Shown here piece after piece: positions 4,294 through 61,017 of a DNA stretch of 64,000 nucleotides. A program made the position numbers and the translations under genes. The stretch's first letter is position 1, and each line of letters opens with the position of its first letter. The stretch is from Candidatus Woesearchaeota archaeon (GTDB lineage: Archaea > Nanobdellota > Nanobdellia > Pacearchaeales > GW2011-AR1). The stretch lies in contig CAZJPE010000005.1 of assembly GCA_964547875.1 (NCBI GenBank), forward strand, positions 27,543 to 91,542, read 5' to 3'. The notes below the pieces were generated by a model. It saw only the letters and a program-made list of their open reading frames with translations, was not told the DNA's origin and did no database searches.

Positions 4294-4509
4294 ATGAATT
4301 TTAAACTTCTTTTCTTAATAGGCTCGATCCTAACATTCTTAGGCCTTTTCTGGATGCTCCTTCCTCACGCTTTTCACGATAAAATCATAGAGAATCAGCA
4401 CATTATCCACATTATTCAAGGCCTAATTCCAACATTACTAGGCCTAATCATGATGGTAAATTCAGAAAATAAGCTAAAATATCTAAGCAAAAACAAAAAC
4501 TTCAAATAA
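4294..4509 (+). CDS. Small membrane protein (2 TM).
   Basis: 71 aa, hydrophobic segments. Tandem with 3905-4264. Confidence 0.35.
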   Translation: MNFKLLFLIGSILTFLGLFWMLLPHAFHDKIIENQHIIHIIQGLIPTLLGLIMMVNSENKLKYLSKNKNFK

Positions 4510-4572
4510 AGTTATCTCACATGAATTTATACACATAAAAAACCGAAAAAACCCCAAATTTTCTCCCAATAT

Positions 4573-4627
4573 CAAAAACATTAGCCACAATAATTCAAGG
4601 CACGAAGTGCCGTCCGCGCCCGACAAA
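4573..4627. repeat. Copy A of a 53-nt conserved element with a perfect GGCAC-GAA-GTGCC hairpin.
   Basis: caaaaacattagccacaataattcaaggcacgaagtgccgtccgcgcccgaca. A second copy at 5288-5340 has one mismatch. Confidence 0.8.
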
Positions 4628-4658
4628 CAATTATAAACGATATCTATCTAATAATTTT

Positions 4659-4949
4659 ATAAACAACATTATCTTTGAAATCGTCGATAAAACAGGAAAA
4701 AAGATAATACTGACTAAAGAAAGATGGACACATATAAGGCAAAAACATGGACTTATTGAAAATCCAGAAGAGATAGAGCAAACACTTACTAATCCAATAA
4801 AAATCATTTTTATCGAGGAGAAAAACAAAACATATTTCTATAACTATTTCAAACATAAGCACAAATCCAGATTTTTAAAAGTTATAGTTAAATATATAAA
4901 TAATCAAGGTTATGTAAAATCAGCGTATTTCACAAGAAGCATAAAATGA
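4659..4949 (+). CDS. DUF4258-like (toxin-like) protein. The ORF has no canonical start codon: it is either a pseudogene or uses a non-canonical start.
   Basis: Frame is open from 4539. It encodes ...IILTKERWTHIRQKHGLIENPEEIEQTLTNPIKIIF..., and its TGA overlaps the ATG of the DUF2283 gene (ATGA at 4946-4949). There is no in-frame ATG, GTG or TTG. It is not in the ORF table. Confidence 0.3.
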   Translation: MNNIIFEIVDKTGKKIILTKERWTHIRQKHGLIENPEEIEQTLTNPIKIIFIEEKNKTYFYNYFKHKHKSRFLKVIVKYINNQGYVKSAYFTRSIK

Positions 4950-5191
4950 AAGGAAAAATGGAAATTTACTATGACGAAGAATTAGACTACTTAGAGATAT
5001 TCGTACAGAATCCTCCTCCAAACTACGGCGAGGATATCGAAGAAGATATAACTCTTTTTAGAGACGAAAATACAGACGAAGTTGTAGGAATAGGGATCCA
5101 AGAATTCAAAGAAAAAACAAAAAACCTCAAAGACATTAAATTACAACTCCCCTTTGAAATCAACTTTCTCCAATTACCTATAAATAAATAA
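4946..5191 (+). CDS. DUF2283-family small protein (antitoxin-like partner of DUF4258).
   Basis: MEIYYDEELDYLEIF...DEVVGIGIQEF matches the DUF2283 signature (YD-E-D-LYI). Start overlaps the upstream DUF4258-like ORF. Confidence 0.5.
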   Translation: MKGKMEIYYDEELDYLEIFVQNPPPNYGEDIEEDITLFRDENTDEVVGIGIQEFKEKTKNLKDIKLQLPFEINFLQLPINK

Positions 5192-5194
5192 TAT

Positions 5195-5265
5195 AGCTAA
5201 AACTTCCTCACATCTCCAACAACTTTTAGCATAAGCAAAAAGTTCGGGTTAAACGAAAGATTTTT
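5195..5265. repeat. Intergenic cassette-boundary repeat, family R1, full copy 1.
   Basis: agctaaaacttcctcacatctccaacaacttttagcataagcaaaaagttcgggttaaacgaaagattttt. Confidence 0.8.
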
Positions 5266-5287
5266 AAATAAATCTATCCCTCAGTCC

Positions 5288-5340
5288 CAAAAACATTAGC
5301 CACAATAATTCAAGGCACGAAGTGCCGTCCACGCCCGACA
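5288..5340. repeat. Copy B of the 53-nt hairpin element.
   Basis: caaaaacattagccacaataattcaaggcacgaagtgccgtccacgcccgaca. It lies 48 nt upstream of the ATG at 5388. Confidence 0.8.
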
Positions 5341-5387
5341 GCATTAAGCAAGCAAAGATTTATTAATAATAAAACCCAGAAAAAAGT

Positions 5388-5633
5388 ATGGAACAAAAAC
5401 ACATAACTTTAGAAAAAATATATTATGCAATACAAAATATACAGAGAGAACTAAGCAACATTAAAGAAAAGCTAGATTGGGAAACAGACTTTACAGAAGA
5501 GGAAAATAAGGAATTTATTGAAGGGACAAGAGAGGCATGGAAAGAAATAGACGAAGGGAAATATACCACTTACAATTCTCCGGAAGAATTTCTATCTACA
5601 TTAAAAGAGAATGATAATAAAAGAAAGCGATAA
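5388..5633 (+). CDS. Putative type II antitoxin (paired with the RelE/ParE-like toxin downstream).
   Basis: 81 aa acidic protein. The C-terminal motif AWKEIDEGKYTTYNSPEEF is shared with orphan ORF 47643-47837. Overlaps the toxin gene by 23 nt. Confidence 0.5.
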   Translation: MEQKHITLEKIYYAIQNIQRELSNIKEKLDWETDFTEEENKEFIEGTREAWKEIDEGKYTTYNSPEEFLSTLKENDNKRKR

Positions 5634-5853
5634 ATTCAAAAGTATTAAATCTAAAATAGATAAAAGTTATCTCACCAAGCTTGAAAAATTAATTAAGAAG
5701 ATTATAAACAATCCAGAAATCGGCAAACCAATGATGCACGAAAGAAAAGGCACAAAAGAAGTTTATCTTCCACCATTTAGGCTTTCTTATTCTTATGATA
5801 GTTCTGCAAATATATTAATCTTTCTCGATATTTATCATAAAAAACATCAATGA
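5611..5853 (+). CDS. RelE/ParE-family toxin.
   Basis: 80 aa. KLIKKIINNPEIGKPMMHERKGTKEVYLPPFRLSYSYDSSANILIFLDIYHKK has the typical RelE/ParE fold pattern and gene-pair arrangement. Confidence 0.55.
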   Translation: MIIKESDKFKSIKSKIDKSYLTKLEKLIKKIINNPEIGKPMMHERKGTKEVYLPPFRLSYSYDSSANILIFLDIYHKKHQ

Positions 5854-5874
5854 GTAAAAATAACAAAATCTCTC

Positions 5875-5913
5875 AGCTAAAACTTCCTCACATCTCCAAC
5901 AACTTTTAGCATA
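5875..5913. repeat. Family R1 repeat, copy 2 (5' half).
   Basis: agctaaaacttcctcacatctccaacaacttttagcata is identical to 5195-5233. Confidence 0.8.
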
Positions 5914-5979
5914 CAATAATTAAGGCGTAAAGCACTATGAAACCGAAAAATATAAATACTTCTGTATCATTATTGTATC

Positions 5980-6195
5980 ATGGAAATAGAAACAACAACA
6001 AGAAAATGGGGAAATTCAATAGCTATAATCATACCCGCAAGCATAGTTGAACAGCAAAAACTAAAAGAAAACGAAGAAGTTATAGTAAAAGTTGATAAAA
6101 AGAAAGTCAAAGCAGGAGAATTATTTGGATTCCTCAAAGACTGGAAAAGGTCAACAGACGATATATTAAAAGAGGCAGATAGAGGATGGGATTAA
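5980..6195 (+). CDS. AbrB/MazE/SpoVT-type antitoxin (VapB-like).
   Basis: RKWGNSIAIIIPASIVEQQKLKENEEVIVKV is a swapped-hairpin AbrB motif. Overlaps the PIN gene by 10 nt. Confidence 0.6.
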   Translation: MEIETTTRKWGNSIAIIIPASIVEQQKLKENEEVIVKVDKKKVKAGELFGFLKDWKRSTDDILKEADRGWD

Positions 6196-6557
6196 AATAC
6201 TTCTTTGATAGCTATGCAATAATTGAGATACTTAAAGAAAATCCAAAATATTCAATTTATACTTCAGAAATTGCAGTTTTAACTATCTTTAATCTAGCTG
6301 AAATATATTGGTCTGCCTTACTTGATTATGAAGAAGACAAAGCAAATATTATTTTTGACACATATAAGAAGGCAGTCATCGAAATTGACGACGATACCCT
6401 CAAAGAAGCTATAAAATTCAGAAAAGAGCACAAAAAGCAAGATCTCTCCTACGCAGATTGCGTAGGATATGTCTATGCCAAACGCAATAATCTAAAATTT
6501 CTTACAGGCGATAACAAATTTGAAAACCTTCCCTTCGTAGAATTCGTGAAAAAATAG
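6186..6557 (+). CDS. PIN-domain toxin (VapC-like).
   Basis: 123 aa. Begins YFFDSYAIIEIL (PIN N-terminal acidic-residue motif). Its position downstream of an AbrB antitoxin supports the call. Confidence 0.5.
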   Translation: MGLKYFFDSYAIIEILKENPKYSIYTSEIAVLTIFNLAEIYWSALLDYEEDKANIIFDTYKKAVIEIDDDTLKEAIKFRKEHKKQDLSYADCVGYVYAKRNNLKFLTGDNKFENLPFVEFVKK

Positions 6558-6558
6558 A

Positions 6559-6603
6559 AACTTTTTGCATAGCAAAAAGTTCGGGTTAAACGAAAGATTT
6601 AAA
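6559..6603. repeat. Family R1 repeat, 3' half copy.
   Basis: actttttgcatagcaaaaagttcgggttaaacgaaagattt matches the 3' half of 5195-5265. Confidence 0.7.
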
Positions 6604-6626
6604 AATAAGAATTATCCCCATTTACT

Positions 6627-7061
6627 ATGAGAATAAAATCATTGAAGGCATTAACACTAGCAAGCTTACTTTGGTGTCAGGGTTGTGAAGAATCAAAAAA
6701 ACAACCAGATTTAATAGGATTAGTAAGTATTTCTGGCATTCCAGTCGCCCCCCAACTTGAGACTTCTAATTATGGAGGTTCATTATCTTTTGTTATAAAG
6801 AACAGAGATGGCTCCATGTTAGCAACACTATCTCATTTTCAACCTCATTATATTGACAAAAAAACTTTGGGTCAGATTAGCTCTCTTTTACACTCCGAAA
6901 TTTCAGATGGAGACGAAGACATTATAGAATGTAAAGGGAATTTTAACAAAGATGGAGTTTTTGAAGTCAAATACATAAAAGGAAATGATTTTGGAACTTA
7001 TTATACTCATCTTAACGGAGATCTTTATCTTATTGGCATCAAGAGTTTCAAATCCCCCTAA
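6627..7061 (+). CDS. Secreted protein or lipoprotein (signal peptide, Cys near the cleavage region).
   Basis: N-terminal MRIKSLKALTLASLLWCQGCEE. 144 aa. Confidence 0.4.
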   Translation: MRIKSLKALTLASLLWCQGCEESKKQPDLIGLVSISGIPVAPQLETSNYGGSLSFVIKNRDGSMLATLSHFQPHYIDKKTLGQISSLLHSEISDGDEDIIECKGNFNKDGVFEVKYIKGNDFGTYYTHLNGDLYLIGIKSFKSP

Positions 7062-7112
7062 AACTTCGCACAAGCACCATTAAGAGTACTTTTGAGAGTT
7101 CTAAAGTGTTAA
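7057..7112. repeat. Degenerate family R1-like repeat.
   Basis: cctaaaacttcgcacaagcacc...gttaaaacgaa. Partial match to the R1 ends. Confidence 0.4.
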
Positions 7113-7157
7113 AACGAATCTAATTAATTTTATATAGAGTTTATACCCAATTCTCTT

Positions 7158-7451
7158 ATGGTTTTTCAAAATATTTTTATAGATTTAGGCAGTTCTATGA
7201 TAACAGGTATTCTTGGAGGATTAGTAATTGTTTGGTTTTTTAATGGAATTCATTATTTTGACAAACAACTTAAATTTAAAACAAGATATGGAAAATACTC
7301 CTTTATTTTTTATTTACTATATATTTTTCTATTATTTATTTCATCTGCTGTTTTTTTATTTACGCGCATCGATAGTTTTTCTCTAGTGGCCTTTGGGATA
7401 GGGATTGCTTTCGAGATTATAATTTTGATTTGGCGTCCAAAATTGGGCTAA
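7158..7451 (+). CDS. Small membrane protein (3 TM).
   Basis: 97 aa, strongly hydrophobic. Confidence 0.35.
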   Translation: MVFQNIFIDLGSSMITGILGGLVIVWFFNGIHYFDKQLKFKTRYGKYSFIFYLLYIFLLFISSAVFLFTRIDSFSLVAFGIGIAFEIIILIWRPKLG

Positions 7452-7460
7452 ATCCTTCAA

Positions 7461-7520
7461 GCTAAAACCTTTTCTCGTCTCCAAAAACTTTCAGCACAAG
7501 AATAAAGTTCATTTAAATTA
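7461..7520. repeat. Family R1 repeat, divergent full-length copy.
   Basis: gctaaaaccttttctcgtctccaaaaactttcagcacaagaataaagttcatttaaatt is colinear with 5196-5255 (gctaaaac-ttcctcacatctccaacaacttttagcataagcaaaaagttcgggttaaacg). Confidence 0.65.
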
Positions 7521-11399: not shown

Positions 11400-14186
11400 T
11401 CATCTATTTCTTCTTGCTAATGTATAATATCCAACAACTCCTAATATAATAATTACTCCAATTATCAACCATAATATGCCCTTAGATATAGGTTTGGCTT
11501 CTGAAGGAGTTTCAGTAGGGGGAGGAATTTGCGCTTGCGCAGCCTCTTCAACAACCCTCTCAATTTTTTCAGCAATTGCAAAGAAGCTAAATGACATCAA
11601 TTCTACTTCAAAATACTCGTTTTCAGAATCAGAATTTATATATTTTGTTTCTAATTCATTCCATTGATTAGAATTTACATCATACCTAAACAATACTACT
11701 TTATCTTTTGTTAGCCCATTACTAATTAGCCAAGATTTTTCAACCTGCAATGTTATCACGCCTTTCTTTATATTATTTTCCAAATTTCGTGACTGTATTT
11801 CTAAATATTTATAGACCTTCCCAGATTTCTCAACACTTACATTTACGGGCTTTCCATCATATTTTATAACAGTTACCTTTACATTTTGTGCAGGATTATT
11901 AACTTCAATTGATATTTCTTTTAATCCGATCTCCTTATCATTTATCTTCATTATTGTTACATTTCCAGGCGTTATTTTTGTCCAACTATTTGTTTTTGTA
12001 GTTTTGTTAGTTGCTGTTACAGCACCACTGCCCCCGCCCCCACTAGAGGTACTAGTAGAGGTTCCAGGAGAAGACGAAGCAGGAATGGCTGCCCCGGTTA
12101 TACTCGGTCCAGTTCCAGAAAAATGTGGCAATCTTACCCATATTTGATTTGAGGTCGTGTTGATATAACAAGGGTTTGTAATATTAAATAATGTGGAGTT
12201 AGTAGTGCAAGTTATGTTATTTAAAAGATACTGCCAATCATTTTTCTTATTAGAATAATGAGAGAAGTTTCCTGCAAAAGCAGTAGAATTCGTACCATTA
12301 ACAGTAGCATTCCATATAACATTCCAATTATCGTCATAAAAAACAGGAATACTTATGTTGACAGGTTGTGTATCATTTAATCCCGTGCTTGCAGATTCGG
12401 AATAAGGAACAGAAACTAAAACATAATCATATACTGTAGGTCCGCTAGATCCGAATCTTAAGGCAGCACTGAAATCATTTCCTGATGTTCCATTCTTTGT
12501 TTTGTCATCAAATAAAGCATCCGGCGGACCAGACGCCATCATATCAACATTTACATAGTGTACTAAAATGCCCGCTGTTCCCATTCTAAAGCTTAGTTTT
12601 CCTCCCCCAATTATTGCAGACATAGGATTAAAGTCCTGCATATTTGTAGAACTCCCTATTACACAAGCGCCAGGAGGATCCGGAACATCGCATGTCAAAT
12701 TTGAAATATAAAGCCCCATTGTTATAGACGACGAACTTAATGCGCTATCAATGGCTTGTGGATTAAATGAATTTATTGTGATGTTACTCACATTTCCATT
12801 TGCATTATTGTCAGTTATAAGCTGGGCAATAGTAGGAGCAATTCTTTTAGGAGCATAATTTCCTCCTCCTACAAAGATATTCATTTCTTTAATTCCTGTG
12901 ATATTTAATAAAGGAATTGAGAAATTTCCACTACTTGATTGTCCAACATCTTCAACCCATGTAAATTCAATTGCCCCATAATTGGAATAATCAACAGTTG
13001 TTTCAATATGCACAGAAGATTGGCTCAAACTGCTGTTTGTTGCGTTAACTAATTGGAATACTTGTTTAGCTACGCCCCTATTTTTCTTTTGGGCAAAATT
13101 ATTTGCATTGTCCAAACTAAAGTTCGAACTGGCTCCTATTAGACCGTACATTGAGAAGTTAATTCTTACCCCCGCAGCACCATAAGATAAACTTATATTA
13201 GCAACCCCGCCATAATACCGGCTTCCATTGCGCGCAGTGGCAAATAACAAATAATTCGCGGTTTCAGCAGAGGCGGGCAAGGTTATATTATAGAATCCGC
13301 TAGTAAGGTTAAAAAGATCAGTAAGTCCAGTCCCAATAAACGTGCTTAAATTAAATGGCATGGCTCCAAACGTAGCATGGACCATATTACCCGGCTCAAG
13401 CATAAACGGTACGACTGTAAACTCGTCCCAGCCACCAGTGCTCGTAACATTGCTGGCATTGATAAAACCTGTAATTTGAGGCAAACTAAGGGTTATATTA
13501 AATTGCTTATAAAGCGTTCGCGTAGTAGCATTATATCGGGATATATTCCCAGAAGTTGTAACTATATTGTAACTGTTAGTAGATGTAAAATTATTCCAAT
13601 TAAAGAAAGCAGGCAAACTTTGATTAGGAAAGACAGTAATAGAATAATTCCTATCCCTAGGAACAACTATATTCGCCTCAAGAACCCCGTCACCAAAATT
13701 ACTCGCAATTAGATAGCCGAGTGCAGAATCTTTAATTTGATAATTAAACGGAATTCTCCCTCCCGACGAATTAATTGCAGTAATATTAATTGTTCCGGCT
13801 TCTCTTAAATAAAATAAATTATTGCGTAACTGAGTAAAAACGAACACAGGGAAAGCAGGCAAACTTTGTCCAACATAATCGACATATGAACCGTTTTTAT
13901 GGGTTATAAGGGGCTCATATAACCAATTTACGCTTTCAGGAATAGTTATATTAAACCAACCGCTCGCATTTGTAGTTGTAGAATTATATCCTGCAGACAC
14001 AAAACCATTTACACCACCCGAAAAAATATTTCTCATGGTTATATTAATTATAGAATTATTCAATGCGTTTCCATTAATATCATAAACAGTCCCGTTAAAC
14101 TCAAAAGCGCTAACTAGTCCAATAGTTGCAAACATATATATTGATATCACAAAAATCAAAAAGCTCAAATATCCGGTTTTCATCAC
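11400..14186 (-). CDS. Large cell-surface glycoprotein (S-layer-like). Signal peptide, about 45 N-x-S/T sequons, Ser/Thr/Gly linker, C-terminal TM anchor.
   Basis: 928 aa. N-terminal MMKTGYLSFLIFVISIYMFATIGLVSA. STSTSSGGGGSG linker. C-terminal GILWLIIGVIIILGVVGYYTLARRNR. Confidence 0.6.
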   Translation of the reverse strand: MMKTGYLSFLIFVISIYMFATIGLVSAFEFNGTVYDINGNALNNSIINITMRNIFSGGVNGFVSAGYNSTTTNASGWFNITIPESVNWLYEPLITHKNGSYVDYVGQSLPAFPVFVFTQLRNNLFYLREAGTINITAINSSGGRIPFNYQIKDSALGYLIASNFGDGVLEANIVVPRDRNYSITVFPNQSLPAFFNWNNFTSTNSYNIVTTSGNISRYNATTRTLYKQFNITLSLPQITGFINASNVTSTGGWDEFTVVPFMLEPGNMVHATFGAMPFNLSTFIGTGLTDLFNLTSGFYNITLPASAETANYLLFATARNGSRYYGGVANISLSYGAAGVRINFSMYGLIGASSNFSLDNANNFAQKKNRGVAKQVFQLVNATNSSLSQSSVHIETTVDYSNYGAIEFTWVEDVGQSSSGNFSIPLLNITGIKEMNIFVGGGNYAPKRIAPTIAQLITDNNANGNVSNITINSFNPQAIDSALSSSSITMGLYISNLTCDVPDPPGACVIGSSTNMQDFNPMSAIIGGGKLSFRMGTAGILVHYVNVDMMASGPPDALFDDKTKNGTSGNDFSAALRFGSSGPTVYDYVLVSVPYSESASTGLNDTQPVNISIPVFYDDNWNVIWNATVNGTNSTAFAGNFSHYSNKKNDWQYLLNNITCTTNSTLFNITNPCYINTTSNQIWVRLPHFSGTGPSITGAAIPASSSPGTSTSTSSGGGGSGAVTATNKTTKTNSWTKITPGNVTIMKINDKEIGLKEISIEVNNPAQNVKVTVIKYDGKPVNVSVEKSGKVYKYLEIQSRNLENNIKKGVITLQVEKSWLISNGLTKDKVVLFRYDVNSNQWNELETKYINSDSENEYFEVELMSFSFFAIAEKIERVVEEAAQAQIPPPTETPSEAKPISKGILWLIIGVIIILGVVGYYTLARRNR

Positions 14187-18122: not shown

Positions 18123-18194
18123 CTTGTTTTTCCAATAGAGTTGTCCTGAAAATTTAATATGAATTCTCATCAAACCAAATAGTTTATATATCCA

Positions 18195-18440
18195 TTACAG
18201 CTGCTCTAAAATGTAGAGCAGCTGGCGCGTCAGCCCTGCGCCATTCGCAAATGGGCTTCATGGCGAGCTGAAAGAGGCGCGTGAGACCGCAGATAAAAAG
18301 TCTCTTGCCGGACGTTGACGTTTTGTCCTGTTCGATCGTGCCTCTGTGAAATGGGTCAGGCCTTGATCGGAGCAGCCCTAAGCAGAAAGCATGGTGCTTA
18401 TAGGGTTGCAGAACCGAGAAAGGCATGAGGAAGCTTTTTG
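18195..18440 (+). ncRNA. Probable signal recognition particle RNA (SRP/7S RNA). The ends are approximate.
   Basis: About 245-nt GC-rich island in an AT-rich intergenic region. GGGUCAGGCCUUGAUCGGAGCAGCCCUAAGCAG matches SRP RNA helix 8 (GUCAGG..CC..GGA.AGCAGCC.AAGGCAG). A TATA-like tttatata lies at 18184 and a T5 tract at 18436. The minus-strand ORF 18184-18426 is rejected. Confidence 0.5.
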
Positions 18441-18562
18441 TCTAAAATCAAGCAAACCTCTTCTCTACACTAGAAGAGTTTTATGTTCAAGAAATCCGGC
18501 AGATTATTCAAAATCAAAGGAAAAAACTAAAACTATAAAAACAACTTTTATCTGAAATAATA

Positions 18563-31213: not shown

Positions 31214-32077
31214 ATGGCAAGAATTAAATCTGAATTAGTGCTTCTTGAGCCAATCATAGAAAAATATTCATTTGCAAGAATCCTTGACGCAGACGAAAAA
31301 AGGGAATTATATCAAGAAGTAAATGAAATTGTAGAAAGAGATTACGAAAACATTCCGGCTTTTCCAGCTTATTGGAAATTTAATGAAGAGACAGGGAAAA
31401 TAAATGGCTCAAATCTTCCTATACTTATTCTTGCTAACAAAATTCTCGCCAAGAAAAACCAGAGAACACTTACATTCGTAGAAGGAATTAAATTAGATAA
31501 AGCTAAAAAATTAAGCAATGAAGTTTATAGGGATTTTGGCTTAGTAGTTTATAGTCCAGGAGAGCCAAACAAGGAAATAGCTGAATTGCTTGTTAAAGAA
31601 GCAAATAGAAGAAATTGGGAATTGCCAGTAATAGCCCATCCATCTGCTTTAGAAATTCCTTCAAGAAAGGCGAATAATAATTATAGAATAGACATACTAT
31701 TTTCAGATAATGATTCTTTAATCATTTCAGGAGAAGAAGCAAGAGAAGTTCTAAAAGAATTCTACGCTCATAATTCTGGCGTTTGCAGGCTGGACCGCGG
31801 CGGGCTCGGCTTCTGGGATGCCGGCTGGGACCTCTTGGCCAGCTCTTATGCTGACGGTCGGGTGGATTGGATTCGTGGCGAAGCCACGCACGAAAATTTA
31901 GAGAGAGAATTATTCGCTGAAATTGAAAGAAGTGCACAAAAATCACCTTATTCAACAAAAGAAGCATTAAAAATGTATAAAGTTGTTGAAGAAATAAGAA
32001 AAGGCGATGTAAAAATTTCTGATTTAGAATCAAGATTATCTCAAGTTTCAAGTTTTCTTGAAAATCTCTCTAAATAA
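31214..32077 (+). CDS. Hypothetical protein, paralog A of a recently duplicated pair. It carries a GC-rich hypervariable segment (candidate DGR variable region).
   Basis: 287 aa. About 88% nucleotide identity to 52236-53066 over roughly 560 nt upstream of the island. The island encodes ...NSGVCRLDRGGLGFWDAGWDLLASSYADGRVDWIRGEAT... Confidence 0.6.
   Translation: MARIKSELVLLEPIIEKYSFARILDADEKRELYQEVNEIVERDYENIPAFPAYWKFNEETGKINGSNLPILILANKILAKKNQRTLTFVEGIKLDKAKKLSNEVYRDFGLVVYSPGEPNKEIAELLVKEANRRNWELPVIAHPSALEIPSRKANNNYRIDILFSDNDSLIISGEEAREVLKEFYAHNSGVCRLDRGGLGFWDAGWDLLASSYADGRVDWIRGEATHENLERELFAEIERSAQKSPYSTKEALKMYKVVEEIRKGDVKISDLESRLSQVSSFLENLSK
31790..31891 (+). other. Hypervariable GC-rich island A (candidate DGR variable region).
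   Basis: 102 nt at over 65% GC, with GC-rich third codon positions, inside an AT-rich gene. It differs from island B at about 30 positions, almost all in codon positions 1-2. Confidence 0.5.
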
Positions 32078-38380: not shown

Positions 38381-39838
38381 TCATGCTCTCCTTCTAAAAC
38401 TCAATAAAGCATAAATTATAGCAATACCAAGAATACTAATCATAAACTGCCAAAAGCCAAAGAAAGGAAGTATCAAGCTTGGCGCAAACCCGCATAACGC
38501 GCTTGTTGTTTCTCCATCTAAGCCATCGCAGTCATTTTCATCAGCAGTGTTTGTAAACTCTGTTGAAGTGCAGCTTACTTCAGGCTCAAAACTTGTTAAA
38601 TAGGTTATTGTAGCAGAATTATCAGTACACTCTCCATATTCTGTTTGTATATTACATCCTCCTACGCACTCTTGCGTCACACCCGGAGGCAAAGGGGCAG
38701 GAATAGCTGTCCAGCGAAACTCACATATGTCAATATTCGCATTCCAATTACAATCGCATCTTATCTCATCCCCATTATTTCTCGTATTCCCGCATCCTGC
38801 TCCTCCGACAAGCCCAGATACTTTTTCTATATCCGCCTCATCAGCCCGCCATGCAGACTCTGGAGCGTTTTCGCATTCATTTTGCTCATCAAATTGAGCG
38901 CATCCATTTTTTTGGACTACAGGCTCATCAATTATTTGTTTCTTTAAATTTATCATACCACTTTTCTGCTCATATTGCTGTACACTTTTTGCAATAAAGA
39001 ATAATTCTAATTGATCTTCATTATTGTCATCTCCTGCAAAATCGGCAAGCGTGAATATGTAATCAAATATCGCTATTCCATTTGCGTCGCTTTTAATAGT
39101 TAAGCCAGAGCGGATAAGATCAGAGCAGGTTGTATCCAATGCATAGCCTAAACAATCAGTGTCATAAATATCATAATTAACATTATTATTTGCTGAAACA
39201 CCTGCCGCAATTAATTTTACACTCGTATCCAAATTTATGTCAAATCCATTCGCCAATTCATTTCTATTAACATTTGCCCAATATGCATCTGGTTGAGAAG
39301 GAGGCGGAGGTCCTGCTATCGTGCTACAACAAATCACATTATTATAATTAGTTCCACTAGCTATCTCTAAATGAGCGTTAGTATTAGAAGATAATCTTAC
39401 GACAATCTCCTCATTAGCTCCATTGCAATTAGATGGAGAGTCTAATCTGCAATTTAAATCCCCATAACAGATTTGCATCGAATAACTTCCAGAAGGACCT
39501 TCAGCGTGCGCATTTGTGCTGGCGCTTAATCTTAATACGCCATTAGCCCCACTACAAACCCTATTGCCATTTCCATTCACTCCAAAAATATCATTATAGC
39601 AAATCTCCGTAGTATAACTCCCCGCCCCATTAAATAGTTCTCCATGAGCATTTGTATCCGCGCTCAATCTCAAAATAATCTGATCTTGCGAGATACAGCT
39701 ATTAGCAGAGCTGACTAGATTTAAGGAAAACATAAAAGCTACAAAAATAGCTATTGTAAATAGCGCGCCTCTTCTCATCTTTCTGAAAACGAATAAAACT
39801 TTATAAAGATTTGTAACAATCGTTATCCCCCCGCCCAA
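38381..39838 (-). CDS. Cys-rich surface protein with three tandem RLSxxTNAH repeats and a C-terminal TM anchor.
   Basis: VLRLSADTNAHGELF / VLRLSASTNAHAEGP / VVRLSSNTNAHLEIA. C-terminal LILPFFGFWQFMISILGIAIIYALLSFRRRA. The signal peptide probably starts at the internal Met (MRRGALFTIAIFVAF). Confidence 0.55.
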   Translation of the reverse strand: MGGGITIVTNLYKVLFVFRKMRRGALFTIAIFVAFMFSLNLVSSANSCISQDQIILRLSADTNAHGELFNGAGSYTTEICYNDIFGVNGNGNRVCSGANGVLRLSASTNAHAEGPSGSYSMQICYGDLNCRLDSPSNCNGANEEIVVRLSSNTNAHLEIASGTNYNNVICCSTIAGPPPPSQPDAYWANVNRNELANGFDINLDTSVKLIAAGVSANNNVNYDIYDTDCLGYALDTTCSDLIRSGLTIKSDANGIAIFDYIFTLADFAGDDNNEDQLELFFIAKSVQQYEQKSGMINLKKQIIDEPVVQKNGCAQFDEQNECENAPESAWRADEADIEKVSGLVGGAGCGNTRNNGDEIRCDCNWNANIDICEFRWTAIPAPLPPGVTQECVGGCNIQTEYGECTDNSATITYLTSFEPEVSCTSTEFTNTADENDCDGLDGETTSALCGFAPSLILPFFGFWQFMISILGIAIIYALLSFRRRA

Positions 39839-40245: not shown

Positions 40246-40973
40246 ATCCTTAATATCAAATCTGCGAAAATTACGCTTCCATCCTCGCGTAATATCTCCA
40301 CGCGCCTTACATTGGAAAACACCTCAACGCCCTCAGGGCGCTCTCTCTTAGCCTCAATCTCCTCGCCTGAATCAAACACAATGTTAAATTCAAAATTAAC
40401 AGAGCTTGGCAGATTAAATTGCTGTTTCAATTTTTCATAATTATCATAATAAGACGCATTTAATGCCTTTATTTTCTTTTCAGACATGAATTTAATCTTA
40501 TCAGAAGAGATTATAGAATATTCATCATCATTCAATTGTCCTCCTCCGCTAGGGCCACTTCCAGGATTAATGTCCTCGCTAAACCTAAATATGGCAAATC
40601 CCTCGCTTGGATCTCCGTCATGTACAGAATCTGCCTTAAAATTAATATTATCGCTAGCTCCTTCACGCCGTGATTCAACAAATGTCCCATGCCTATTCTC
40701 TGCTCTTACATTTTTTATATTGTCAACACCAGAAATCTTTATTTTCCTAAATTCGCTACCGCTGCCCATGCCACTTACGTCCATCTTTACATAATAGCTC
40801 TCAACCTCTGTGTTCGTATTTTCAATAATTTCCCTAAAAGCATAAGAAGTCGCAGATTCCACAATCCTTGAGGTCTGCGATGGGCTAAAAAAATAAAACG
40901 CAAATATTACAAATCCAATAAATATCAAAAAAGACAGCATAACTTCAATATGACTGATTCCTCTTTTCTCCAT
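40239..40973 (-). CDS. Pilin-like protein (class III signal peptide).
   Basis: MEKRGISHIEVMLSFLIFIGFVIFAFYFF (KRG then a hydrophobic helix). Confidence 0.5.
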   Translation of the reverse strand: MEKRGISHIEVMLSFLIFIGFVIFAFYFFSPSQTSRIVESATSYAFREIIENTNTEVESYYVKMDVSGMGSGSEFRKIKISGVDNIKNVRAENRHGTFVESRREGASDNINFKADSVHDGDPSEGFAIFRFSEDINPGSGPSGGGQLNDDEYSIISSDKIKFMSEKKIKALNASYYDNYEKLKQQFNLPSSVNFEFNIVFDSGEEIEAKRERPEGVEVFSNVRRVEILREDGSVIFADLILRIW

Positions 40974-49745: not shown

Positions 49746-50219
49746 ATGGATTTATATCTAAAGCAATATTTGGAAAAGCACGACATTAAATACAAAATTT
49801 ACAAGCATAAGGCAGTTTTTACAGTAAAGCAATCAAGCTTAATAAAAACAAAAATTCCAGGAAAACATACAAAATGCCTTTTTCTAAAAGACGAAAAGCA
49901 GGATTTCTATTTAATAGCACTCCCGGCAGAAAAGCGCCTGGACACAAAATCTCTAAAAAATAAACTAAAAATTAAAAAACTCAATTTTGCAAGTACAGAA
50001 GAATTGAAAAAAGAATTAAATCTAATACCAGGAAGCGTCTCAATTTTTGGCATGATTTACGCAAAAAATACTAATTTAATAATTGACAAAGAACTCTGGG
50101 AAGCAGAATCAGCAGGTTTTCATCCCAATATAAACACTTCAACAATAGTTTTAAATCATGAAAATCTTGAAAAATTCTATAATTCATTAGAAATAAAAAA
50201 GTCTATTATGAAATTATAA
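49746..50219 (+). CDS. YbaK/ProX-like aminoacyl-tRNA deacylase domain protein.
   Basis: KCLFLKDEKQDFYLIALPAEKRLDTKSL...IPGSVSIFGMI. Confidence 0.5.
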   Translation: MDLYLKQYLEKHDIKYKIYKHKAVFTVKQSSLIKTKIPGKHTKCLFLKDEKQDFYLIALPAEKRLDTKSLKNKLKIKKLNFASTEELKKELNLIPGSVSIFGMIYAKNTNLIIDKELWEAESAGFHPNINTSTIVLNHENLEKFYNSLEIKKSIMKL

Positions 50220-52235: not shown

Positions 52236-53066
52236 ATGGTAGAAACAGCATCTCAAGACATTGTATTACTTGAGCCAATAATAGAAAAATATTCAGTTGC
52301 AAGACATTTAGGCTCTGACGAACAAAGAAGTCTTTATGAAGGTATAAATGAAATTGTAGAAAGAGATTATAAAAATGCTCCAGCTTTTCAAACTCGTTGG
52401 GATTTCAATGAGCAAACAGGCGAAATAAATGGCTCTAATATCTTTAGAGCAATTCTTGCCAACAAAATTCTCGCAGCAAAAGGAGAAAGAACACTTACTT
52501 ATGAAGAAGGAATGAAATTAGATAAAGATAAAAAATTAAGCAATAAAGTTTACAGAGATTTTGGCTTAGCAGTCCATAGTTTAAGAGAACCAAACAAGGA
52601 AATAGCTGAATTGCTTGTTAAAGAAGCAGAAAAAAGAAGTCTGGAATTGCCAGTATTAGTTCATCCTTCTGCTTTAGAAATTTCTTCAAGAAACGTTAAT
52701 AATAAATATGGGATAAACGTACTCTTTTCAGATAATGACTCTTTAATCGTTTCAGGAGAAGAAGCAAGAGAAGCTCTAAAAAAGTTTCATGCTTATAATT
52801 CTGGCGTTTGCAGGCCGTGTCGCTACTGGGACGGCGACTGGGTTGCCGGCTGGGTTGACTTGGCTGGCTCCAGTGCTTGCGGCAGGGTGGATTGGGTTCG
52901 TGGCGAAGCCACGCGTGAAAATTTTCAGCAAGATGATTTAATGAAAAAGGAAAGCGAACTTTACACTTCTAAACAAATTATACAGGCAGCAAGCGAAATA
53001 GATTTAAATCTTTTAAGAGAGAACAAATTAGAAGACATCTTACTTAGAAAATTAAGGAATAAATAA
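52236..53066 (+). CDS. Hypothetical protein, paralog B of the duplicated pair, carrying the second hypervariable GC-rich segment.
   Basis: 276 aa. ...NSGVCRPCRYWDGDWVAGWVDLAGSSACGRVDWVRGEAT... Similarity to paralog A ends abruptly at the 3' edge of the island. Confidence 0.6.
   Translation: MVETASQDIVLLEPIIEKYSVARHLGSDEQRSLYEGINEIVERDYKNAPAFQTRWDFNEQTGEINGSNIFRAILANKILAAKGERTLTYEEGMKLDKDKKLSNKVYRDFGLAVHSLREPNKEIAELLVKEAEKRSLELPVLVHPSALEISSRNVNNKYGINVLFSDNDSLIVSGEEAREALKKFHAYNSGVCRPCRYWDGDWVAGWVDLAGSSACGRVDWVRGEATRENFQQDDLMKKESELYTSKQIIQAASEIDLNLLRENKLEDILLRKLRNK
52815..52916 (+). other. Hypervariable GC-rich island B (candidate DGR variable region).
   Basis: Same length and register as 31790-31891. 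The flanks are near-identical, but inside the island 14 of 34 codons differ, mostly NNC/NNT codons changed at positions 1 and 2. Confidence 0.5.
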
Positions 53067-59224: not shown

Positions 59225-61017
59225 TTACTCATCTCTTTTAACTTTCTCATTGTCTCTTCTAATTCCCCGTCTTCCTTTGACCTTACTCCTCTTGTTGCTC
59301 TCATTGCAGGACCTCTTACAGGCATTCTTGAGCCATATCTCATCATAGGCATCATTCCCTGGAATCCAGGAGGCCTTCTTGCGCTTGCCATTGCACTCTC
59401 ATCCCTTCCTCTTTTCCTAGTATGCCACCAAATTTGCAATTTATGCCTGTATATTATTGCCAAAATAACAATGAGAATTAAAACTATCAATATCACAATC
59501 CATATAGTTGAAATTCCTCCTCCTGCTTCCTCTTCCTTTTCCTTGCAGCACACATCGCCAAAATCAGGGCAGCTTTCGCTTAATTCATCTTCGCTATCAG
59601 AGCAGCTGGTTTTGCATAATCCATCAGCAATAGCGCATAAGTTTGTGCTTGGTATATTTTCACACGCCCCATTAACACAGCAACTGCCGTCTGCAGATTG
59701 CTCTATTGCTCCAGTGCATCTCTGATTTGAAGCGCAGATTAATCCTCTCTTTTCAGCGCAAGTAACATCCTGCACTTTAATTGTACAACAAGAATCTCTG
59801 AAATTCTGGCAGGTAAATCCCTCTAAAACACTTCCCCCTGTAGCTGAGCATTCATTTGCAGCCTCGCAGAAATGCCCTGTTGATTCACACGAGTTAAGTC
59901 CGCCTCCAGGAGAACTGCCTGCTCTCGGCCAGGCAGCATATAAAATAAATCCCGTGTCTCTTATGTTATTATTGTTCCAGCATCCCTCTCTTGTCTGCAC
60001 GCTCAAAAGATAATTCTTTGCGCTTTCAACTTCTCCTGCTCCTGTTCCTGATAATGCAAGCAAAGCAAGTGCGCTGTCATAGAATCTATTATAAGGGCTT
60101 CCTATAATATCCCAATACTGCCCTAATTTCTGCTTTTGCACAATATCAGCGTACATGTCTCCTCCTCCAATTAAAATGAATAAGAAAGCACTTGGAAGAA
60201 AGCGCTGATTATCGTCTGAAAGCGCAACTAAATAAGGCATGTAAGGTGTGGCGTCTTCCTTTGCTTTTCTCAAAGCAAGCGCTGCCCAGAGAGTTCCTTC
60301 ATAATCGCACTTGCCTCCTATTGCAAGGCATTTTGAATTAACTTTTTCATTTGTCGTTCCTAATGATGCGCTGGAATGCGTTTCAGAAGATACAAAAACA
60401 GTGCTTCCTGCCTTTTTCTGATAAACAAGAGTTGTTATAAAATCTTCATCGCACGAAATCTCAAACTCTTTGTCAAGGCACTGTTCTCTGATTCTTAGCC
60501 AGTATCCATCATATCCAATTTCCAGGCAAGAGCCAGGATTTCCCTCTAATTTCATGTCTTCTCTTACGCGTATTTTTGTCTTCTGGGAATCATATCCAAT
60601 ATTGCATTCAGAAGCAACATGATTTTCAATGTCAATCTCTAAATACCATGTCAATTCCTGCGTATTAATTGCTTTTGACAAAAGCCAGTCTTTTACTTCT
60701 TTTGTATTTTTTCCAATTCTGTCATATGCCATTAACGCTTGCGCGCTGTCTTTTATATTACATGTCTTTGGCCAGCAAGATTCTCCAGATTTTTTCTCAC
60801 CTTCTATTTTTTCAGCAAGCTTATTGTTAGAGCCTAAAGCCAAAATTCCAAATACAGCATCTTGCAATGAGAAAGAGCTTTTGTCTTTAATTTGAGTTTC
60901 CAGGCATTGATATGCTTTGTCAACACCTACTTTCTCATCTATGGGAGTTTGCGCATTAACAAAAACAGAAAACAATGCGGTGAGCATAAATAGTAGAATA
61001 ATCTCTCTTTTTTTCAT
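59221..61017 (-). CDS. Cell-surface protein with prenyltransferase/alpha-alpha-toroid-like repeats, Cys-rich stalk, TM anchor and Met/Arg/Pro-rich cytoplasmic tail.
   Basis: MKKREIILLFMLTALFSVFVNAQ. Repeats QDAVFGILALGS / AQALMAYDRIG / GTLWAALALRKA / DSALALLALSGTG. C-terminal CPDFGDVCCKEKEEEAGGGISTIWIVILIVLILIVILAIIYRHK. Confidence 0.5.
   Translation of the reverse strand: MKKREIILLFMLTALFSVFVNAQTPIDEKVGVDKAYQCLETQIKDKSSFSLQDAVFGILALGSNNKLAEKIEGEKKSGESCWPKTCNIKDSAQALMAYDRIGKNTKEVKDWLLSKAINTQELTWYLEIDIENHVASECNIGYDSQKTKIRVREDMKLEGNPGSCLEIGYDGYWLRIREQCLDKEFEISCDEDFITTLVYQKKAGSTVFVSSETHSSASLGTTNEKVNSKCLAIGGKCDYEGTLWAALALRKAKEDATPYMPYLVALSDDNQRFLPSAFLFILIGGGDMYADIVQKQKLGQYWDIIGSPYNRFYDSALALLALSGTGAGEVESAKNYLLSVQTREGCWNNNNIRDTGFILYAAWPRAGSSPGGGLNSCESTGHFCEAANECSATGGSVLEGFTCQNFRDSCCTIKVQDVTCAEKRGLICASNQRCTGAIEQSADGSCCVNGACENIPSTNLCAIADGLCKTSCSDSEDELSESCPDFGDVCCKEKEEEAGGGISTIWIVILIVLILIVILAIIYRHKLQIWWHTRKRGRDESAMASARRPPGFQGMMPMMRYGSRMPVRGPAMRATRGVRSKEDGELEETMRKLKEMSK

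Follow-up and report, generated by a model that had tools for sequence, protein, structure and literature searches.

The 64,000-nucleotide (nt) stretch of archaeal DNA examined here (the window) contains two paralogous protein-coding genes, each carrying an island of unusually GC-rich sequence, which we describe as candidate target genes of a diversity-generating retroelement (DGR). The window corresponds to positions 12459-76458 of the 114,134-bp metagenomic contig ENA ERZ27284378 k139_112547 (co-assembly SRP178908), and together with the next 9.4 kb rightward (read from locus L010, which spans contig positions 65138-85866) it makes up the 74 kb of DNA that was read. Its average GC content is 0.333, and the archaeal genes present include those for a TrmB regulator, a signal-peptide peptidase, PCNA and primase. 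The host is a Woesearchaeota-like DPANN archaeon, and DGRs are reportedly abundant in DPANN archaea.

Two paralogous genes with GC-rich islands

Paralog A (31214-32077, + strand) encodes a protein of 287 amino acids (aa) with a body and tail type common to the relatives P0003-P0006 and to the target protein of locus L019. Paralog B (52236-53066, + strand) encodes a 276-aa protein that, from alignments to A and to the related locus L001, combines an A-type body with a locus-specific tail. No Pfam match was found for the paralog protein. The two bodies share 79.6% nucleotide identity (538/676) and 69% amino-acid identity, and A and B are thus old paralogs rather than the products of a fresh duplication. 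An initial annotation of this DNA, which called the upstream segments near-identical, overstated their likeness.

Each island spans approximately 110 nt, and the two contain the most GC-rich of all 80-nt stretches in the window (0.70 and 0.69). The GC content at third codon positions (GC3) is 0.70-0.73 in the islands compared with 0.16-0.20 in the gene bodies. Between the islands of A and B there are 11 differences at first, 10 at second and 5 at third codon positions. Both islands terminate in GGGTGGATTGG(A/G)TTCGTGGCGAAGCCACGC. The 13-mer GTGGCGAAGCCAC has exactly two matches in the window, at 31875-31887 and 52900-52912, where approximately 0.17 matches would be expected by chance with two mismatches tolerated. 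The genes are unrelated past GAAAATTT (31892-31899 and 52917-52924), with A running on as ...HENLERELFAEIERS and B as ...RENFQQDDLMKKESE. Thus, the string that had been reported as shared by the island ends (31874-31888 and 52899-52913) and followed by unrelated sequence is indeed present in these two places only.

Homologous genes reside in DGR cassettes

Our first homologue search with the paralog protein recovered only seven relatives. One of these, P0005 (56% identical to B), is encoded on the 3.4-kb contig L004, where 89 nt of the gene recur 385 nt downstream and this second copy is followed by a reverse transcriptase (RT) gene with the DGR motifs GNLTSQ and YVDD. Locus L008 carries the same P0005 cassette. 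Loci L007 and L008 were located with a degenerate pattern for variable region (VR) and template repeat (TR) made from invariant positions. This pattern matched three loci among metagenome contigs, two of them with a TR and an RT and none from the organism of the window, and gave no matches in genome contigs (one genome per species) or viral contigs. Four further loci (L013, L015, L017 and L019) were traced via relatives of the RT, and in each a target gene for a protein of approximately 240-270 aa lies directly upstream. Three of these loci (L013, L015 and L019) also yielded a TR. The targets in L013 and L015 are more distant relatives.

Target, VR, hairpin, TR and RT follow one another in this order in the cassettes of L004/L008, L007, L013, L015 and L019. 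In the two cassettes for which mismatches between TR and VR were counted, they fall on TR adenines in 18 of 19 cases (L004) and 19 of 20 cases (L007). Because the mismatches are nearly all at TR adenines, the repeat pairs represent DGR cassettes and the protein family is a DGR variable-protein family. Both window genes are therefore homologous to proteins encoded directly upstream of a TR and an RT, namely P0005 and the targets in L007, L019, L013 and L015.

The cassettes have other features in common. A conserved spacer separates target and TR (L004 1075-1320, L007 310-550, L013 3715-3995, L015 3750-4000, L019 2760-3000 and L001 6000-6260), and includes a 5ˊ stem, a CCACACG box, AAATTCAA and, in some cassettes, GGTGGTAATTGG. 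The sequence immediately 3ˊ of the TR (TGGTTAGG, TGGCTAG, CCAGG or CTAAGAC) complements the 5ˊ arm of the spacer stem and, by eye, covaries with it, which suggests a long-range or alternative pairing that would enclose the TR in the DGR RNA. Several RT reading frames are interrupted, by a frameshift beside a (GA)n run in L004 (1848-1880) and L008 (1250-1275) and by an in-frame TAG in L007 (1323-1325). These interruptions could reflect decay, assembly error at the repeat, or recoding. After the target gene of L013 (3456-3690), the first 55 nt of the gene appear again, followed by a run of N and then the gene tail. This second copy is a scaffold gap and not biology. The scaffold break was probably caused by VR heterogeneity, which would hint at diversification in that population.

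Variable regions with an adenine signature

Aligning the islands in register with the L004 and L007 TRs delimits a VR in A at 31781-31865 (VA) and in B at 52806-52890 (VB), both on the + strand. In VA, 20-21 of the 27-28 columns in which these TRs carry adenine are altered. The two VRs differ from each other at 25 positions, of which 18 fall on TR-adenine columns even though such columns comprise only 27-28 of the 86 aligned (Fisher p = 5.5e-7 with the L004 TR and 1.4e-6 with the L007 TR). This concentration of differences on TR adenines indicates that the islands are DGR variable regions. A TR corresponding to these VRs would be a repeat of the GTTTGCAGG...CGAATGG type. Presumably, each VR was once written from the cDNA of a TR whose adenines are copied at random. 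Such copying would explain why most differences between A and B lie at the first two codon positions, and would leave the island indifferent to the AT-rich codon usage of the genome.

A putative homing motif and a covarying hairpin

The 3ˊ end of each VR is formed by a motif resembling the initiation of mutagenic homing (IMH) sequence of other DGRs: GGTCGGGTGG in VA (31856-31865, + strand) and GGCAGGGTGG in VB (52881-52890, + strand). Both have the GGGT form seen in cassette VRs, with the exact tetranucleotide at 31860-31863 and 52885-52888. Six cassettes (L004, L007, L013, L015, L019 and the second DGR of L001) read ...G-GG-T(G/A)G in the VR versus ...G-AA-T(G/A)G in the TR, and in all six the likeness of TR and VR ceases 2-3 nt past GGGT/GAAT. 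The IMH at the 3ˊ end of the VR hence differs from its TR counterpart (IMH*) as GGGT versus GAAT, judged from these proxy cassettes. Nanoarchaeota DGRs show the equivalent pair, with IMH TGGGGT and IMH* TGGAAT (Paul et al. 2015, PMC4372165). The GGGT motif would mark the point at which information transfer from the cDNA stops. The initial annotation placed the homing signal in the conserved GC-rich 3ˊ end of each island. The signal does reside there, with the hairpin next to it, but the string named consists mostly of spacer and hairpin, and the motif itself lies slightly upstream.

Eight nucleotides past each VR is the hairpin CGTGGC-GAA-GCCACG, found at 31874-31888 in A and at 52899-52913 in B (+ strand), which is supported by both folding and covariation. 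The element is intragenic, encoding the residues RGEAT in A, and both genes thus carry a GC-rich inverted repeat with a GAA loop shortly downstream of the VR. Translated together, the IMH motif and the hairpin give GRVDWVRGEAT, the final strand of the variable domain. For the 23-nt core, a 6-bp stem is predicted, with energies of -6.4 (+ strand) and -6.5 kcal/mol (- strand) and z of -2 to -3.

Comparative sequence analysis supports the hairpin better than folding does. Among 11 loci the stems are CGTGGC/GCCACG, GTCGC/GCGAC, GTGCC/GGCAC, GACGCC/GGCGTC, ACGACGCC/GGCGTCGT and AGTGGC/GCCACT. When these loci are aligned, with hand-anchoring on the loop, 95.5% of the cells are paired and changes on both sides of the stem occur in five of the six pairs. 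Alignments that were slid out of register pair at no more than 53%, and no shuffle attains the observed values. The encoded peptide varies (RGEAT, CREAT, SAEGT, YDAKGV) while pairing is retained. Covariation of a hairpin at the cost of the amino acids it encodes is clear comparative evidence that a structural DNA signal lies within a gene. Retrohoming in the Bordetella phage BPP-1 depends on a structure of this type just past the TR/VR homology, in which the stem can vary freely while the loop is conserved (Guo et al. 2011, PMC3240598). By analogy, a hairpin or cruciform 8 nt past the VR would make each site in the window a homing target.

We estimate a probability of approximately 0.85 that the GC-rich islands comprise the VR, homing signal and hairpin of DGR target genes, and that A and B encode DGR variable-protein paralogs, with B being a mosaic. 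The proposal in the initial annotation that the islands are DGR variable regions therefore gains support from the complete cassettes of homologous genes and from hairpin covariation.

Gene B is a mosaic

A related locus accounts for the abrupt end of the likeness between A and B. Locus L001 comes from a sister strain in the same sample (deposited as "Candidatus Woesearchaeota archaeon") and is syntenic with locus B, with 78-91% nucleotide identity in both flanks. The body of its orthologous gene, P0007, has no DNA-level alignment to that of B (amino-acid identity of 38% along the whole protein and 27% in the body), and homology returns at 52880. In a three-way alignment, B tracks L001 through the region of the ATG, then A up to the hairpin, and then L001 again from within GAAAATTT (52917-52924, + strand), 8 nt that are common to the A-type and orthologue-type sequences and that contain the 3ˊ junction of the mosaic. 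The tail of B (52914-53066, + strand) is of the locus type, is predicted to form a long helix, and is identical to the P0007 tail in L001 at 141 of 150 nt (94%). With a tail that matches L001 and a body that matches A, B is a chimera in which a whole variable domain, including VR, IMH and hairpin, is set in a locus-specific frame. The A-type block extends from the first eight or so codons to just past the hairpin, and the promoter side and tail are those of the gene that the sister strain carries at this locus. The tail of A (31889-32077, + strand) is of the common family type LExEL...KExALK, as seen in the alignment of the seven-member set (A1), and A and B cease to match after the hairpin because B is a mosaic with a different tail.

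Alignment of orthologous loci, which the initial annotation had proposed as a check, hence revealed an abrupt break rather than gradual divergence, with the element kept through compensatory changes. The same annotation regarded the end of the duplicated segment as expected at an IMH boundary, which conflates two different boundaries. A DGR predicts the end of TR-VR homology and not the end of likeness between paralogs, and the paralog break comes approximately 26 nt after TR-VR homology has ended, beyond the hairpin. Homing did not make the identity break, which is the junction of a mosaic and falls where the variable domain ends, just past the hairpin.

The tail of B begins with NFQQDDLMK, which resembles NFQPDNLMQK of P0007-type relatives and suggests that the A-type domain is the incomer. 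From these sequences, the exchange probably moved an A-type domain into locus B. A Woesearchaeota member of the family in locus L012 was considered as an outgroup for polarizing the mosaic, but lacks synteny and was unusable. Arrival of the A-type body as error-prone cDNA was rejected, as the differences between the bodies of A and B exhibit no adenine bias (36 of 116 at A, compared with an A content of 40%) and a symmetric spectrum.

An AlphaFold2 model built from 52 sequences (predicted local distance difference test score, pLDDT, of 89.8) places a strand at residues 220-226, which are encoded by the IMH, and a single long helix at residues 227-274, which corresponds to the tail. An earlier attempt with seven sequences was unusable (pLDDT 40.6). 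In this model, the break falls at a domain boundary, such that the variable domain would end at the break and the C-terminal helical tail would be a separate, interchangeable module. Members of the A/B family are about 255-290 aa long. Pairs with 58-76% identity in the body have only 3-14% identity in the tail, and 19 of 52 members extend no more than 17 residues past the hairpin. A profile search recovered 981 cluster representatives at E <= 0.001, and some of the longer proteins among them carry the domain C-terminally. The mosaic copy and the interchangeable tails indicate that these variable proteins evolve also by exchanging modules where the variable domain ends.

Conservation of the IMH and hairpin at the nucleotide level in otherwise diverged members would offer a crossover point for such exchanges, and selection would retain only those that occur at the domain boundary. 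A more active role for the target site can also be envisioned, in which the break was made by gene conversion of the whole domain after cleavage of a cruciform, or by RT-made cDNA of a leaderless paralog mRNA primed at the hairpin. The block replaced in B does end 4-11 nt past the hairpin and start within the first few codons, and breaks at cruciforms have been proposed previously (Guo et al. 2011, PMC3240598). Nevertheless, we regard this origin of the break as improbable. The body differences noted above are transition-dominated as well as symmetric, and the lack of adenine bias holds outside the VR. Furthermore, the bodies of A and B have diverged by 20%, as much as the flanks have from those of the sister strain, and A itself is thus not a recent donor. 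In the comparison of P0007 with P0136, the break lies approximately 12 residues past those encoded by the hairpin and at no fixed nucleotide, and selection alone could position the junction at what is, in the model, a domain boundary. It is similarly doubtful that the IMH and hairpin generally serve as a preferred breakpoint for swapping variable domains or C-terminal tails between DGR target paralogs, whether through cruciform breaks or cDNA made by the RT from paralog transcripts. If true, this would mean that DGR target sites drive the modular shuffling of genes in addition to point diversification.

Live targets or fossils

Several observations weigh against the interpretation of the islands as DGR target sites. 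The TRs used in the adenine test are proxies taken from other organisms, and seven of the differences between VA and VB lie off the adenine columns of these related TRs, five of them at third codon positions. Hence, VA and VB do not both stem from recent rewriting by one and the same TR. Third-position divergence in the VRs (5/37) is not clearly below that in the bodies (44/177). Folding of the sequence that follows each island, which had been suggested as a check for a hairpin, succeeded for the 23-nt core described above, but the energies of the 61-nt context are unremarkable. As these energies are not distinctive, it is covariation and the 23-nt core that carry the case for a structure. L007 and L019 have a degraded canonical hairpin even though their VR/TR pairs look functional, and the stem in L012 is also damaged. 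Gapless scans of both strands of the window with VA, VB and two foreign TRs returned only the VRs themselves, and such scans likewise revealed no TR in L010. Six-frame motif scans of the window and L010 found no open reading frame (ORF) bearing YxDD or GxxxSQ, and the six RTs traced via relatives in search of the RT of this genome all come from other samples.

The lack of a TR and an RT in the window could be taken to mean that the islands are unrelated to DGRs and represent a GC-rich hypervariable loop that is under ordinary diversifying selection or is of foreign origin. We consider this very unlikely, given that homologous genes reside in cassettes whose TR matches the same region, that the positions at which A and B differ concentrate on adenine columns (p about 1e-6), and that the stem covaries despite altering the encoded residues from RGEAT to CREAT or SAEGT. 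If A and B are indeed DGR targets, the same absence from 74 kb fits the view that VA and VB are fossils, written by a DGR that has since been lost from the lineage and now drifting as ordinary sequence. The five third-position differences off the adenine columns are C/T differences in the direction of AT-biased drift, and the family member in L012 has in-frame stops and a broken hairpin. In addition, a DGR located 4 kb from the orthologous gene in the sister strain has an RT cut to 44 codons, and this 2.7-kb cassette is absent from the window, which together indicate that decay and loss of DGRs are ongoing in the lineage. Drift fits poorly with hairpins that are perfectly kept and identical, with intact reading frames, and with a GC content that is still very high, and we give the fossil explanation slightly less than an even chance. 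The alternative is that VA and VB are live but remote targets, rewritten in trans by a DGR with an RT and one or two TRs elsewhere in the genome. The intact ORFs and IMH motifs, the perfect and identical hairpins amid differing flanking codons, and a GC3 that remains at 0.70-0.73 against 0.16-0.20 for the genes argue for recent templating. The DNA read spans just 74 kb of one contig, and VRs that lack an RT and may be diversified remotely are known in Nanoarchaeota (PMC4372165). Moreover, VA ends in GGTCG, as do the TRs of L007 and L019, while VB ends in GGCAG, as do those of L004 and L013, which would fit two separate TRs. Against remote rewriting stand the missing TR and RT, the off-adenine differences, which mean that the VRs share no recent template, and a third-position divergence in the VRs that is not significantly below that of the bodies. 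We hold continued diversification to be somewhat less likely than not, and nearly as probable as the fossil explanation. The importance of the two loci would rise if reads showed that both RT-less copies are diversified in trans, or if breakpoints clustered at the stem.

The second DGR of the sister strain lies within a 2.7-kb insert (L001 5112-7830) between genes for a tRNA-editing-domain protein and an SNase, which adjoin each other in the window (50191-50219). The insert has an imperfect direct repeat of approximately 27 nt at its two ends and contains a different target gene of 256 aa, a VR (5839-5929), a TR (6144-6234), the shortened RT and a DUF4143 ATPase. Its IMH is TCTGGGGT versus TCTGGAAT, and an AGTGGC-GAA-GCCACT hairpin spans the stop codon. 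In L012 (5860-6490), from another Woesearchaeota metagenome-assembled genome, the family member is of the P0007 type and has TAA in place of the GAA loop in addition to the in-frame stops and broken stem. No TR was found near this gene, which is likely a decayed target.

Comparison with known DGR target sites

The cis elements and architecture described here match those of published Nanoarchaeota DGRs, and this type of site has therefore already been described. In the DGRs of the DUSEL4 single-cell genomes of Nanoarchaeota (Paul et al. 2015, Nat Commun 6:6585; PMC4372165), as in the window, IMH and IMH* differ as GGGT and GAAT, a hairpin with a GRA trinucleotide loop (GAA in our case) lies inside the target gene, an internal VR is followed by a C-terminal extension, and the host is a DPANN archaeon. 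VRs without a nearby RT were also reported there and were interpreted as fossils or remote targets. Unlike these systems, the window lacks an RT and a TR, the host is Woesearchaeota-like, the target family has no sequence match in PDB or Pfam, and one copy is a mosaic with its junction just past the hairpin.

The variable protein AvpA of a Nanoarchaeota DGR has a C-type-lectin fold, with CLEC5A as its best match (Handa et al. 2016, PMC5006420). Its size (256 aa) is similar to those of A and B (276-287 aa), its VR is near but not at the C-terminus, its IMH encodes the last, non-variable strand, and it has a helical extension of approximately 46 residues whose coding sequence includes the hairpin. 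A comparable size and layout are seen here, with the strand and the helix predicted from the model. C-type-lectin domains, including CLEC5A, recur among the weak Foldseek matches of our model and are the best of them, but no match has E < 0.1, and a C-type-lectin fold of A and B would be tentative. In contrast to AvpA, the family yields no relatives in PDB with profiles of 7, 52 or 133 members or with single sequences at E <= 10, and thus no homology to AvpA was detected. At best a loose resemblance links the AvpA motifs GXXVVVYAH, HPXXXPFXG and RFXGV to GLVVY, HPSAL and GRVDWV.

Similarities extend to the mtd target site of phage BPP-1 (PMC3240598), in which an IMH ends the VR and a GC-rich inverted repeat with a free stem and conserved loop is located a few base pairs downstream, past the TR/VR homology. 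The spacer of 8 nt in A and B is within the reported range of 4-34 bp. However, the stem of 6 bp with a 3-nt GAA loop differs from the 8-bp stem and 4-nt GRNA loop of BPP-1, the element is coding and not located past the stop codon, a (GC)14 tract is lacking, and the function of the element in the window is putative.

These results leave the known picture of DGRs unchanged. They add two DGR variable regions in a Woesearchaeota-like genome, with cis elements as published for Nanoarchaeota, and tie them to the large unannotated family of 981 representatives, which has neither a Pfam family nor a sequence relative in PDB.

Other features of the window

An antisense ORF of 109 codons (31722-32051, - strand) had been noted as a spurious by-product of the GC-rich codon usage and as rich in Arg, Pro and Leu. 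The ORF exists, and we also take it to be spurious because it lies entirely within gene A, which has homologues, but its Arg/Pro richness is confined to the overlap with the island. Other GC-rich stretches (12009-12116, 38787-38869, 40274-40353 and 59853-59941) resemble ordinary coding sequence and lack a match to the hairpin. A further GC-rich island at 18191-18386 was considered as a similar element and is explained by the RNA of the archaeal signal recognition particle, which was detected at 18210-18471 on the + strand with a score of 80.8 bits (E = 1.3e-18), under the Rfam gathering score of 96.5.

The region at 4500-7500 contains a row of small genes of the toxin-antitoxin type that resembles a cassette array, including DUF2283-like (4946-5191), ParE (5611-5853), MazE (5980-6195) and PIN (6186-6557) members. 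Between these genes are non-coding repeat modules, two of which (4562-4625 and 5277-5340) are 91% alike. Further modules are present at 5180-5233, 5860-5913 and 7445-7498, and also at 5234-5271 and 6571-6608. One of the repeat modules holds a GGCAC-GAA-GTGCC hairpin.

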